From assembly GCF_030013595.1 (NCBI RefSeq), contig NZ_CP122768.1: 64,000 bases of DNA, one strand, 5' to 3'. This document shows positions 15,001 to 21,000 of the stretch, piece by piece. This DNA is from Escherichia coli. GTDB lineage: Bacteria; Pseudomonadota; Gammaproteobacteria; Enterobacterales; Enterobacteriaceae. Positions within the stretch are counted from its first letter, which is position 1; each line of letters opens with the position of its first letter. A program made the position numbers.

Positions 15001-18000
15001 GACATGAAAAAGCTGGGGTATGAGATGAAACACTTCCGGCGCTGGCTGTACAAGCTGGAAAGCGACGGCGTAATCGCTATTGACGGTGATTATGTGCGCC
15101 CACTGTAAAAAGTGAGGAGCAAAAGTGAGGATGGCGGGTAATTTAACAAAAAATCAACGCCACTCCTCACTTTCTCACCTGTATATAGGTCAAAAAGTGA
15201 GGAGTTAAAAACACATTGCAAAACAACAGATTACAACAATAAAGAAAACGACTGAGGAGCAGAACAAGAATAATAAAAAGTGAGGAACAAAAGTGAGGAA
15301 TGGTGAGTTAATAGAAATGAGGTAATAAAAATAACAGGTAGGTTAAAAAACACACCATGCAAGATATTAACTAAAACTTAACTATTTACCTCACTTTTGC
15401 GTATATATAAGGATTAAAAAGTGAGTACTTAAAAATACATTTAAAATCATATTGTTATTAACTTCATAAATTTTCACTGTGCAGCAGGTGAGGAATTAAA
15501 AAATCAGGAATGTTAAAAATGAAAACAGAATGTTGTGTCAGTGCCGTTGGGCAACGTAGCAACCAGTAAAAACGATGGGGCAAAGCATGACTAAGCTGAC
15601 CATTAACAGAAAACCGAAAGGCATTTACGGCACGCCGCAGAAAACGACGCAGGCGGCGCAGGAGCAGGATAAAACCACATCGGCGCATAAAGTGATGCCC
15701 GGTAACCAGAAAGCGCAGCAGAAGCCCACAGGGGCGACACCGTGGCGGCATATGACCAAACGCCAGCGCAAAAACCGCAGGCGCGTTAACCGCCTCACTG
15801 AGTTGTGGCCTGAATTATTCAGCCGGGAAGCACCGAAGCCGCTTAAGGTGGGGATATTCGACGACCTGATGCAGGATCTCGCCGTCAGGGGGCTGGCATT
15901 CGGTCCAGGGGCATTGCGTGCGACGCTGGCATCTTATGCGCAGTGTCCGCGCTATTACCGCGCCTTAATGGCTGGTGGGGTACGCTACGACCTGAAAGGC
16001 CAGCCGTGCGGCGAGGTGACACCACAGGAACAACAGGACGCCGAAACGCGGCTGGTGGCGCTGAATGAGAAGCGCAAACGTCAGCGCCGGGCAGCAAAGG
16101 AGAAAACAGGCGCATGATTCACGACAGCAAAGCGGAAGCACTGGAAGCGCGTGGTCTGTACCGGAGAGCGGCGGCGCGGTGGGCTGAGGTCATCATGCTG
16201 GCGAATGATGACAAGGCACGGGAACAGGCGGCAAAACGTCGCGCGGAATGTATCCGCAAGGCAGCACGCCCACCAGCAAGGCAGGATAATTTCGGGGAAA
16301 TGCGCGAAACCATCAGCCGGGCACATGCCGGGATGGGATTACATCAGCCCAATGGTAAGGCATTCAGGAAATACCCTGGATCGAAAAATTGCAGTCAGTG
16401 ACAGAAGCCGGGATTTTTCCCGGCTTTTTTGTGCCAGTAAAAAGCCCGCAGCCAGAAGTGTTGCGGGCTTTGTTTTTCAGGTGATTGAAGTCAATGGGAA
16501 GAACGCGATCATCATGCGTTATCGCTTCATAAATTGCAACGATGTAGATCGTTATTTCAGTTTGTGCAATCATAATCATTGTTTTGTTCAGGAGATATGA
16601 CTATGAGAAAAGCCAGCGTGAAACCCGTTTTACTCGCTCGTGATCAGATTGAAGCATTACAGCGCATCCAGGACGAGGAACGCCGCAATTCTCCGCTGGG
16701 GATTGCTCCGAGCATTCATGAGGTCGCCCGGCGTTTAATGCAGCGGGCGCTTTATCCCGTAGAACGTCCGGCCTGATGGTCGTGATTTTTTGGTGAAAAA
16801 AGAGAGGTGGTAAAAATGCCAGCAAGCAAAGAAGATTTGCGATTAAAACTGATGGAGGTGGTTAACGCTCTGTCAGAGTCGCAGGGCAGCACTCCGCAGG
16901 AGATTATCGAAATTCTGAATGCGATCCCCGCACAGGATTTCACAAAAGCGGACGAGGATGACGCGAATAAAAACATCGTCGCGTCAGTCGAAGATGAATC
17001 CTCACTGGCAGAAGCCCAGGCTAAAGCGGATTCCGCATACAGCAATATGGGCCGTCGCGCTCCAGCCCCGTTTGCTGGTGAAAAGTCGATGGATTACCGC
17101 AAGCGTGCATTAATTGGTGCACAGAAGCTGGCTAAAAAATTCAGTGATGTGGATATTCGTTCCGTTTCAGATTCTGCAACGCTGGCGGTGCTGGAAGATC
17201 AGATTTACCAGGCTGCAAAAGACAGTGTTCAGTGGGCTGTGGAAAATACGCCGGGCTATTTGCGTAAAACCGTAAGAATGGATGAAGCCGGACGGCGGAT
17301 TACTGAATATCAGGGGGATCCGAATAACTGGCTTAGTGCTTTCAAAATCCCTCCCCGTCGCCTGGTTAAAATTAACGTTGCAAGCCTCGCGGGGGCATGA
17401 AAAACGTGCTGATTTCAGCCCTGCCGGATTTGGTGGGGCTTATTGCTTATAACCGGGGGACATTATGCTTTTAACAGAAATTGAGGCGGCAAAGCAGATT
17501 CGGGACGGTCAGCTACCGTCGCCTTATCAGTTTTCCAACATGTGGCTGATTAACCTGCGTATCACAGGAACCGGAATGGCCTATCGCGCCGAAGAAAAAG
17601 AATTTGTCTGGCGTTCACCGCAAACTTATCTCAATCCGCAGTTCCTGGAACGTTGCGCCGGAGTACCCGTCATTATCGACCATCCCGAAAGCAAAACCCT
17701 TGAAGACGTGGGCGAACGGTCGCGCATTATTGGCACCGTTATGTTGCCGTATATTCGCGGTGACGAGGTGTGGGGCGTATGCCGGATTTACGGGCAGGAA
17801 ATCATCGATTACATCCAGAAAGCACGGGGGGAGGTATCCACCAGCCCGTCGGTTGTGTTTTGTGGTGCGTCCGGTGGGGCAGAAGTTCCTGATGTAATGG
17901 GCGAGGACAATTTTTTCATTGAGGGTACGCCATTTCTTATCGATCACGTTGCGCTCGTACCGTTGGGCGTATGGGATAAGGGCGGGAAACCATCAGGTGT

Positions 18001-21000
18001 GGAAGTAACAACGCCGACAGAAGAAGAACAGCTCGCCGGAATGGTCCGTGAAGTTATTGATGCGGCCTGCAAGCCAGCCCTGGAAAAACTGGAAGAAATA
18101 TCCGGGCGCTGGCTATGAATCGTGGGATTGTCCCTGCAGCAGGAAACAATGATCAGAACGTTAAGTTGGAAATTGTTCGGAACGCTGGTGCCGATTACTT
18201 CGCGCAACTAATTGGTGCTCAACGGTTCCTGGGATGATTTAAATACACGCGCTTTCCGGCGCATTAATACAGTCTGAGGGGAAGTGTCATGTTTATGAGC
18301 AAGGCAGAATATGCCAAACACAAAGGCGTAAGCCGCCAGACAGTTTACGACTGGATCGAGAAAGGCGAAGTGGTCATGTCCGGTAAAAAAATCGATGTGG
18401 AAGCGACAGAGCAGCGGAACAGCCCACCAGCACAGGGAAAAGATACCGTTTCTGAAATGTGGCCAGAGAGAACGCTGGAAATGACGTGGGGCGAGTTCTG
18501 GAAAGCAGTTAAGGCCAGAGACGGTAAAATCCCTGCACCAGTAACGGACGATGACATACAGCAGCGTGTGCAGGATGCAGCCGGGGAACTATGCTGTGAA
18601 GTGCAATTTCTTGATGATGGTGCTATCTGCCTTGAGGATTATGCTGGGCAATATTACTTTGAGCAGTATGATTTTCGGGAAAATGCCAGGCTGGCAATTC
18701 GTATGCTGCGTTGTGAGCTCTGCTATGTTGCAGGTGATTGTCCCGATGAGCTGGATAACTGGAGTGAAGCCGGACTAAACGCCCTGGCTGAGTGGGAAAA
18801 ATCATCCCATTAATGACCGTAAAATTCGCGAAAAGTGTCAAGTCAGGCCGTCTGCCGGGTTGACACTTTACACTCTGAACGCGAAAAAGTGTCAACCTCG
18901 CTGTAAGCCCCGCCATTACTGGCCTTTCGCCAGATTTACCACGTCAAAAAGCCGAAAAAATCGCGAAAAGTGTCAAGTTGCCATGCTTAGAAATGCTAAG
19001 GTTTGATAAGGTTTTTCGCGAAAAAGTGTCAAGTGTGTCAACCTGCGATGTTAAGATTTGTTAAGGTCTTAAGCCGGAAAGTGTCAACCAGCCCCTAAGA
19101 TTTCCTAAGGTGTAAATCATGACCATCACCGAAGCCGATATGCTGGAGATGATCCGCAGCATTGCCGGAATCAGACCACCAGCAGGCAAACAGGAGGCCA
19201 CGCAGCCGGACAGCGTTATCGCTGAGAACTATGCGCGTGTGGTGGCTGAGGTGATGCGCCGTGACGGTATTGAGCTTAACGGAGTGGATATGCGCGACAT
19301 ACGCACCAGGGTACTCGAGTTATTGGCCTACCGTCGCCGCGTGCAGATGTACCGGGAGAGCGAGAAAAAGACTTACCAGTGGAAGAAGCCGGAGCGGTTA
19401 CGGCGGTAACCAGTTGATAAAAAGGCTCCTCAATTTTGAGGAGGGTAGCTGGTGGCTGGCAGAATGTAAATTTACATTCTGGTGATTTAATCATCTGATT
19501 TACCCGATGGCTTACCTTACCAGGCCATAGCGGATTACCGTGCAATGCGCACCATCGCCACCAATACGCACATCAAAACGTGGCTCACGGACTTTCACAC
19601 GCTCCAGCAACTTATCACGAACCATAGCGTTTAGCGTCCTTCGTGTTGCCTCTATGTGATATCGCTGATATTCGGAACCATAGAGCAGCACTGTAACACC
19701 ACGAACATCAAAAGGTGGATCTCCAGCCTCCACCCGCACCCAATCGCGATACTCAGGTTTGTAGAGTTCAAGGATCTGTTTTTTGTGCCTGGTCATTCTC
19801 ATGCGTGCAACTCCTTATTGTGGGACAGTACTGTCATACAATAAGCTATACGGAAAATTATCAAAAGAACAGAAACCAACCATTCAGATTTAACAGGTAT
19901 CAATGGGATTATGCTTATGGTGCATGATGACAAAGCGGAAGAACTGGAAGCGAAAGGCTTATGGCGACGGGCGGCTAATCGCTGGGGTGAGTTACTGAAA
20001 CAGGCGGCAAGTGATGAAGCGCGTCAGTATGTAACGGAACGACGAACGGCATGCATCCGGAAGGCAACCATAACCCGGGAACCGGAAAGAGACCTGATTT
20101 GTGCCATAAGAACCGCCGCCACAAAAACACTAACGGATATGGGGATCGACCTGAAAAAAGAAGATCCACTGCGGGGCATTCAGCACGGACATACAAAGCA
20201 GGATAAACGCAGGAAGTAAATTTTTTCGTGTAACCAGGCAACCGACTATCTGAAAGATAGTCACACCCTACCGGGATCACGCTAGTAACGCACAACAGAG
20301 TGACCCATAGCCACCCTGTTTAACCGTTCCGGCTGGCTGGGCAGATTTTGCGCGGGTCTTATAGTCCCTCACAACAGAGTAAATAAAATTGACTTGGTTA
20401 CAGAGTAACCAAACCGGAGATTCCCGGTTTGCTCAAAAAATGACAATGAGTTACGCCCCTAACCTAAGTAATCCTTACATTCACTGCATCATCACCATGA
20501 TGGTGACGCAGCCCACCAGCAACCATAACGATTTCCGTTACAGTTGATGTGCTTTTTTGCTGGTAAGGCGTAACCCGTTGATTGTTCCAGAATCCACCAT
20601 CGGTGGAAGTTGAAAAACTCACCCGCCAGATTCTGAATGGTGAAAATCACCGGGGATCTGAATAGGCATTTCCTCTATGGAGGTCGCACCGTTTTCGGGA
20701 GAAGGTGCGATCATGTTCGTCATACCTGTTCCGTTGAAACGGAATACCCCATTCCGGCGTAGCTGGTGGACGCACAGCCACATACGAAAAATTGCATTCA
20801 GGAGGGGGGATCGAAATCCCTACCCCCCATTGCTTATGGGACCGCCCGCCCCGTCAAATTTTTACACCCGCGAAATTAAAAAAATGCGTCGCGCTGGTGG
20901 GCCTGATGCCGATATGGGGATTCCCATAACGGGTTATCCATGATCATCCACCAGCTTGATAACGGATAACAGGGGATGCGAAATCCTCAAGCGAGTGATA

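Follow-up and report, generated by a model that had tools for sequence, protein, structure and literature searches.

What is the role of the late genes of a phage-satellite-like island in Escherichia coli when none of them can be recognised by eye? This question is raised by three same-strand genes, here designated g1, g2 and g3 (194, 217 and 174 amino acids (aa), respectively), which occupy positions 16816-18813 of a 64,000-nucleotide window of contig NZ_CP122768.1 (RefSeq assembly GCF_030013595.1) and which are followed by a repeat array. The initial annotation had described them as a single uncharacterised module in the position of a satellite packaging or capsid-interference block, and had noticed a start resembling that of a small terminase subunit (TerS) in the third. 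In the current study, the three open reading frames (ORFs) and the array were indeed found, in what represents the late, helper-manipulating zone of the island. Judging from homology, g1 and g2 are together a split and reordered copy of the protease-scaffold gene of a helper phage, and g3 is, by virtue of its position and its N-terminal domain, the counterpart of RppA of the satellite EcCICFT073.

The island is 14,057 bp in length, resides in tRNA-Gly(CCC) and is bounded by exact 19-bp direct repeats which constitute its attachment (att) sites (Table 1). Its genes follow the order integrase, AlpA-like, AntA/Bro-type, DUF4222, D5-type primase, iterons, ProQ/FinO and PerC, which is the layout of a Gram-negative phage-inducible chromosomal island (PICI) and is collinear with EcCICFT073. 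Like a PICI, it is an att-bounded element within the range of approximately 10-15 kb and has a co-oriented integrase, AlpA-type regulator and primase, the last followed by a probable origin, and among the island ORFs scanned against Pfam and PHROG no capsid, portal, tail or lysis gene was detected, g1, g2 and g3 being the only ones related to heads or packaging. By its gene content, the island is a PICI-type phage satellite. A strong terminator-like hairpin located after perC, followed by a promoter-like block (TTCA-N5-TGCAA ... TGCA ... CATAAT) that is retained in islands of E. coli, Klebsiella aerogenes and Pantoea agglomerans as well as in EcCICFT073, indicates that the g1-g3 region is a separately controlled late zone, and this block may be a control region common to PICI late zones. 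That g1, g2 and g3 are genuine genes is evident from the many full-length homologues of each and from pairwise ratios of non-synonymous to synonymous substitution (dN/dS) among E. coli variants of 0.15-0.25 for g1, 0.05-0.13 for g2 and 0.04-0.18 for g3, the values of g1 and g2 reflecting purifying selection.

The common origin of g1 and g2 is apparent from a single PHROG profile, phrog_6216 (545 positions), to which g2 aligns at positions 115-315 (E 2e-79) and g1 at positions 405-544 (E 8e-47). Using tblastn, both were found to match the same 14 phage records, with one ORF per record. In the 430-aa protein of Rac-SA53, residues 1-220 are 54% identical to g2 and residues 295-422 are 65% identical to residues 60-187 of g1. 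Proteins of this type consist of the protease domain, a linker rich in Lys, Glu and Ala, and the C-terminal domain, while in the satellite the two halves are encoded by separate genes in swapped order and the linker is absent. It is this linker that has caused the phage proteins to be misannotated as "TolA"; some of the phage homologues additionally possess an N-terminal NUDIX domain. The phage gene is located after the portal and head-morphogenesis genes and before a 205-aa gene and a 342-aa major capsid gene, and the slot between portal/head-morphogenesis and capsid genes is the classical place for a prohead protease or scaffold, P2 gpO and lambda C/Nu3 being analogues of such protease-scaffold fusions. 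This placement is true of the phage homologues only, as g2 does not lie between portal and major capsid genes in the satellite, which has neither.

Contrary to the initial impression that none of the genes was recognisable, g2 scores above the Pfam cut-off for DUF2213 (PF09979; 28.2 bits against a cut-off of 22) and also matches the head maturation protease profile phrog_530 (E 5.7e-5). It fits an assemblin or T4 gp21-like fold. Across 21 sequences from satellites and phages, its residues H73, S125/S127 and H161 do not vary, and they are candidate catalytic residues, occurring in the order His...Ser...His of the assemblin triad.

The C-terminal part of g1, of approximately 130 residues, represents a widespread domain (1379 clusters at E <= 1e-3) for which no Pfam family exists and which is found at the extreme C-terminus in all hits listed, in proteins that range from 140 to 830 aa. 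The N-terminal segment of approximately 55 aa is found only in satellite proteins, and in the alignment a set of substitutions is common to the g1 proteins of satellites and missing from the phage copies. The length of g1 is 194 aa from the ATG used by RefSeq and 197 aa from an upstream GTG. A by-eye likeness of the g1 N-terminus to the helix that follows the protease domain, which would imply a tandem duplication, was assessed by hhalign and rejected (probability 1%). The accompanying 57-aa ORF, g0, yielded no Pfam, PHROG or phage match; its counterpart at the corresponding position in K. aerogenes (locus L010) shares 69% identity with it, others occur in P. agglomerans (L011) and in locus L016, and it is conserved together with g1 across four types of island.

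E. coli, K. aerogenes and P. agglomerans all have the genes in the order g0-g1-g2, even though their proteins are only 51-62% identical. Within 5426 complete E. coli genomes, the g1-g2 pair occurs in 33, at 47 places and with both genes present every time, and the Rac-SA53-type gene occurs in 86. Among the matches listed (30 for g1-g2 and 60 for the Rac-SA53-type gene), at least 11 of the 33 g1-g2 genomes carry both elements, a lower bound that compares with approximately 0.5 expected (hypergeometric P ~1e-12, with strain relatedness ignored). This co-occurrence is indirect evidence that a helper phage may induce and transfer the island. A distance of 39-44 kb separates the island from the Rac-SA53-type head gene in strains STEC005, STEC719 and RM9088, and HNSQ2209 is a further strain with both elements. 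The P. agglomerans island abuts a Rac-SA53-type prophage head module, and its g1 shares 63% and its g2 55% identity with the 438-aa protein of that prophage. As the distance of g1-g2 to the helper copy is the same in E. coli and Pantoea, the pair represents an independent, old lineage rather than a recent capture.

The late zones of related islands vary in composition. The g0-g1-g2 island of P. agglomerans (L011, 1762-18666) carries two TerS genes and is situated approximately 0.5 kb upstream of the portal gene of the prophage; it may be a helper-embedded or helper-adjacent satellite. Locus L016 (7797-9837) contains g0 and g1 but not g2, followed directly by TerS genes of the Sf6 type and the phrog_370 type, from which it follows that g1 can stand alone. 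The slot between g2 and g3 holds an 88-aa gene and a 345-aa baseplate-hub-like gene in locus L005 (4707-6010), and a 205-aa gene and a gene with a lytic transglycosylase domain in locus L014 (3832-6301). In the island studied here, and in those of cq9 and U90, a replacement of approximately 175 bp between g2 and g3 (18110-18289) has shortened g2 from the 223 aa seen elsewhere to 217 aa and opened a gap of 170 bp, whereas g3 starts 6 bp after g2 in other strains.

Concerning g3, the AlphaFold2 model (predicted local distance difference test score 88) starts with a winged helix-turn-helix (HTH; residues 1-43), which a disordered linker joins to a compact a-b-b-b-a domain (residues 61-170). The winged HTH is of the lambda-TerS type (TerS/Rpp/Xis-like), in agreement with the TerS-like start noticed initially, and residues 1-42 match phrog_57; the match is confined to these residues and no Pfam TerS family was detected. 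The family is restricted to Enterobacterales, where its members are named hypothetical or generic DNA-binding, HTH or repressor proteins, and residues 1-41 are nearly invariant among them, the remainder being as low as approximately 35% identical. No similarity was found to the TerS of Rac-SA53 or to the two TerS genes of TerS-type islands such as L011.

The array that follows g3 contains six exact copies of AAAGTGTCAA, all within 18832-19087, and seven of the ten matches to the motif A[AG]GTGT[AC]AA in the window lie in the 306-bp gap after g3. Related arrays (AAGTGT[A/C]AA) follow g3 homologues in Enterobacter, with five of seven hits at the locus, and a weaker version is present in Pantoea. 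Neither the helper-type phage loci examined nor the TerS-type islands nor EcCICFT073 contain the motif, and the array co-varies across genera with the near-invariant N-terminal domain of g3. The gene that follows the array is conserved, and its 96-aa product is 69% identical to that of the 93-aa gene that follows cos1 in EcCICFT073. In that satellite the order is rppA (144 aa), the cos1 intergenic region and the 93-aa gene, and in the present island it is g3, the array and the 96-aa gene. The HTH domains of g3 and RppA are 40% identical over 25 residues by BLASTP, and nothing beyond this was aligned. RppA binds the TerS of the helper and redirects it to the private cosB site of the island (PMC6739421). 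A lambda-type cos was sought in the present island, and the sole cosN match has two mismatches, is located inside the primase gene and is at chance level.

The g3 gene and its array were found in 166 of the 5426 E. coli genomes (approximately 3%), five times the count for g1-g2. In minimal islands g3 is the sole sizeable late gene, elsewhere it follows unrelated cargo that includes Dit-like tail genes and a KAP NTPase, and islands that have g1-g2 but lack g3 harbour two true TerS genes in the g3 slot. The three genes do not form one module as initially proposed, because in other islands g1-g2 are found together with true TerS genes, or g3 together with unrelated cargo; the late region consists of two separable units, g0-g1-g2 and g3 plus array. 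By sequence and by C-terminal fold, g3 falls outside the Rpp family; nor is it a canonical TerS. It is the best candidate for the packaging-specificity factor of the island, and the array is a candidate for the site at which it binds and at which packaging is directed.

Based on these findings, we consider it an evenly balanced proposition that the first unit remodels the capsid, and the second redirects the packaging, of a Rac-type helper. According to this proposal, g1 would compete with the helper protease-scaffold for its site in the procapsid interior, as CpmB and Rcm do (PMC5644958, PMC12409344), which would shift capsid assembly towards island-sized heads or merely poison the phage heads. 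Loss of the linker would shorten the scaffold, and g2 would provide a maturation protease adapted to these capsids. In g3, the TerS/Rpp-like winged helix would attach to the array and the C-terminal domain would contact the helper terminase, so that packaging would be diverted from phage to island DNA, as is the case for Rpp at the cosB of EcCICFT073. The homologies, folds, conserved residues, synteny, co-variation, co-occurrence and purifying selection described above are observations, to which capsid binding, size redirection, protease activity, DNA binding to the array and terminase contact are added by inference.

In favour of this proposal, cryo-electron microscopy of Pa193 gp24, a member of the DUF2213 family, revealed that a segment after the protease domain binds the capsid interior, which its authors read as a scaffold (PMC11456595), and the predicted binding of the g1 C-terminal domain to capsid protein is based on analogy with this protein. 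Several points weigh against the proposal. No sequence link could be established between the gp24 segment and g1, and comparison of the Rac-SA53 protein with a PDB entry for Pa193 gp24 matched only the low-complexity linker. Capsid size is not redirected by EcCICFT073, the sole E. coli relative for which this was tested, despite its capsid-like genes (PMC6092414). The island is approximately 0.27-0.30 of the length of a 47-52 kb helper, a ratio that fits small capsids and multimers in full-size heads alike, and the putative identity of that helper is based on homology and on a co-occurrence in which strain relatedness is ignored. For the second unit, no match of g3 to RppC was obtained by phmmer or by a profile search of the PDB, the C-terminal domain of g3 is unlike the all-helical dimerisation domain of Rpp, and a search near the array for cos- or pac-like DNA shared with phages returned only 28-bp P1-like hits at chance level.

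Among the alternatives, the first to be weighed holds that g1 and g2 serve interference only, being dominant-negative fragments of the helper protease-scaffold that do not give rise to island-sized capsids. In such a scenario g1 would block the docking of scaffold or protease and the untethered g2 would cleave head proteins too early, so that helper yield would be lowered to the benefit of the host population or of the island. The same homology evidence underlies this explanation, loss of the linker and separation of the protease from its targeting domain are what a poison fragment would be expected to look like, and the related island EcCICFT073 interferes without a change in capsid size (PMC6092414, PMC6739421). 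A pure poison, however, would also harm the capsids that the island needs, and purifying selection has maintained the predicted catalytic residues and the satellite-specific g1 N-terminus in several genera, as would suit a constructive role. Furthermore, a PADLOC scan matched no known defence family, returning nothing for g0, g1 and g2 and only a chance-level HTH match for g3 (E 0.008), and NCBIfam likewise yielded no family name. We regard interference alone as unlikely, although it deserves serious consideration.

It is also conceivable that g3 is a transcription regulator or a recombination-directionality factor (Xis/Cox-like) that acts on the array, for example to control the 96-aa gene or excision. 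The array is situated approximately 2 kb from attR, a greater distance than an excisionase site would allow, and the integrase region already has an AlpA-like gene next to it. In EcCICFT073, the corresponding intergenic slot has been defined by experiment as the cos1/cosB served by RppA (PMC6739421), islands that lack g3 have TerS genes in its place, and the minimal islands would be left without any packaging determinant if g3 were a regulator. Such a function for g3 is therefore considered rather improbable.

A third explanation views g1 and g2 as helper late genes that were captured passively, as back-ups or decaying fragments without a specialised function. Helper late genes are often taken into the Late zone, according to the preprint by Tommasini et al. 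(10.1101/2022.07.18.500453), and tail- or lysis-like genes of various kinds occupy the slot beside g2 in other strains. Against this stand the split, swapped and linker-less form with its new N-terminus, which is identical in three genera at 51-62% identity, the dN/dS values of 0.05-0.25 for g1 and g2, and a divergence from the neighbouring helper copy that is equal in E. coli and Pantoea (approximately 55% and 63-65% identity) and so indicates an old, independently maintained lineage; passive capture is accordingly held to be very unlikely.

Finally, the notion that g1 is a NUDIX hydrolase and the block metabolic or nucleotide-modifying, which draws on source annotations of the g1 family and on the N-terminal NUDIX domain of some phage homologues, is almost certainly wrong, as g1 lacks a Nudix domain in Pfam (PF00293) and NCBIfam and aligns only to the non-Nudix C-terminal part of the phage proteins. 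NCBI and UniRef call most members of the g1 family "NUDIX hydrolase", including Salmonella Typhi entries, a name that was carried over from phage NUDIX-protease-scaffold fusions.

Returning to capsid remodelling with redirected packaging, the closest parallels for g1 are CpmB (SaPI1) and Rcm (SaPIpT1028), with which it has in common a design that joins the capsid-proximal C-terminal part of the helper scaffold to a different N-terminal part. CpmB and Rcm are satellite scaffold mimics that redirect capsid size and are encoded in the late operon beside a packaging gene (PMC5644958, PMC12409344, PMC6893505). In contrast, g1, at 194 aa, is considerably longer, has its origin in a protease-scaffold fusion, is accompanied by g2 and the 57-aa ORF, and belongs to a Gram-negative host with a presumed Rac-type helper. 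The Pfam and PHROG scans gave no match between g1 and CpmB or Rcm; no direct comparison was made. With the phage DUF2213/Pa193_gp24 fusions, g2 shares DUF2213, the assemblin fold and the His/Ser/His residues, and g1 shares the C-terminal domain of the family; the phages, however, employ one gene where the satellite has two, which are reversed and linker-less, include a new g1 N-terminus and are not accompanied by a portal or capsid gene.

The Rpp proteins (RppA/B/C) of E. coli cos-type PICIs such as EcCICFT073 and g3 are alike in their N-terminal winged HTH and in the rppA-cos1-like synteny. They differ in that the C-terminal domain is a-b-b-b-a in g3 and an all-helical coiled-coil dimeriser in Rpp, in the lack of overall sequence homology, in the absence of a lambda cosN beside g3 and in the repeat motif. 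The likely helpers of the present island carry Terminase_2 and Terminase_6N subunits rather than the lambda Nu1/A proteins. The Late zone of Gram-negative PICIs and helper-embedded satellites as described by Tommasini, Mageeney and Williams belongs to the same architecture (integration, Bro, replication and late zones) and likewise contains helper head genes; in their preprint, what is captured are intact genes or clusters, and in the sections consulted neither a split, permuted protease-scaffold nor a pair corresponding to g3 and its array was found. The capsid-forming PICIs (cf-PICIs) also carry their own head-maturation protease, but as part of a complete head set of capsid, portal, connectors and terminase, none of which is present in this island.

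The coordinates of the island features are collected in Table 1. The iterons lie not only 3' of the primase gene but also 3' of a RepA-helicase-like remnant, and they are probably the replication origin of the island, by analogy with the usual PICI layout (PMC6092414). Directly 5' of the AlpA-like ORF, at 9363-9486, are repeats of 33 bp in tandem (TTACCATCACCCTTAGGGT...) and related ones of 17 bp, which may constitute an operator region; the counterpart of this ORF is annotated as an HTH regulator in E. coli cq9 and CFT073. A near-identical island is present in cq9 at a different chromosomal site, between abgR and smrA (L001, 2517-24691) and approximately 6 kb from the Rac prophage locus (intR, xisR, ralR, recT, recE). 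The interval from the 96-aa gene to attR contains, at 19512-20219, a minus-strand 96-aa ORF without a family match and a second PerC-family gene (19911-20219). Immediately beyond attR (21292-50000), the window contains a gene for a GH15-family glycoside hydrolase (21292-22944) and then an IS3-family element (23234-24507); the low-GC cluster (30-40% GC) that starts at approximately 24.8 kb includes a secretin and an AraC-like regulator and has the appearance of the ETT2 type III secretion island.

Table 1. Features of the island, with positions in the 64,000-nucleotide window
Feature	Position	Strand	Description
attL	7026-7044		TTCCCTTCGCCCGCTCCAA; 3' end of tRNA-Gly(CCC) (6970-7043)
Tyrosine integrase, 417 aa	7169-8422	+	Pfam Arm-DNA-bind_3, Phage_int_M, Phage_integrase
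AlpA-like small HTH protein, 65 aa	9576-9773	+	Assigned by sequence pattern and synteny
Primase/replication protein, 582 aa	12636-14384	+	D5_N, DUF5906, Pox_D5; phrog_864 DNA primase (E 1e-143)
Ori-like iterons	15106-15300		AAAAAGTGAGGA; at least 3 copies, spacing of ~84 bp; 3' of primase
Terminator-like hairpin, then promoter-like block	16441-16600	+	Hairpin at 16441-16471; after perC, ahead of late genes
g0, 57 aa	16603-16776	+	ORF travelling with g1(-g2)
g1, 194 aa	16816-17400	+	Satellite-specific N-terminus (~55 aa) and phage protease-scaffold C-terminal domain
g2, 217 aa	17465-18118	+	Stand-alone DUF2213 prohead-protease domain and C-terminal helix
g3, 174 aa	18289-18813	+	Winged HTH (1-43), linker, new alpha/beta C-terminal domain (61-170)
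Repeat array	18817-19115		Six exact AAAGTGTCAA sites (five +, one -) and degenerate copies; after g3
Conserved 96-aa gene	19119-19409	+	After array; phrog_1561
attR	21083-21101		Second exact 19-bp copy; right island end, 14,057 bp from attL

The principles on which this proposal draws, being late-gene capture, scaffold mimicry and TerS retargeting by satellites, are already known. In the literature searched, neither a split, permuted and linker-less protease-scaffold pair nor a g3/array pair with a new C-terminal domain was found, and a search for DUF2213 in satellites returned nothing relevant. It is tentatively suggested, as a possibility somewhat on the doubtful side, that a lineage of enterobacterial satellites rebuilt the helper protease-scaffold as a two-gene, linker-less system, with g1 as a short scaffold and g2 as a free protease, that makes island-sized capsids out of Rac-type phage proteins, and that g3 represents a second, structurally distinct Rpp-like class which retargets headful (Terminase_2/Terminase_6N) terminases to the private AAAGTGTCAA array, so that terminase hijacking would no longer be confined to lambda-type cos phages.

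Capsid-size redirection is well understood in the staphylococcal islands, P4 and PLE, and the g1-g2 block provides a concrete candidate for a scaffold-competition mechanism in Enterobacterales, for which the presumed helper class is identifiable as the Rac-SA53-type prophages, some of which carry LT-IIa enterotoxin genes. The widespread misannotation of g1 as a "NUDIX hydrolase" is corrected and markers are gained for satellite-detection tools, while g1, the putative catalytic residues of g2, g3 and the array offer clear experimental handles. Should g3 and its array indeed retarget a non-lambda terminase, the principle known from Rpp would also apply to a protein architecture and a helper class that are both new.

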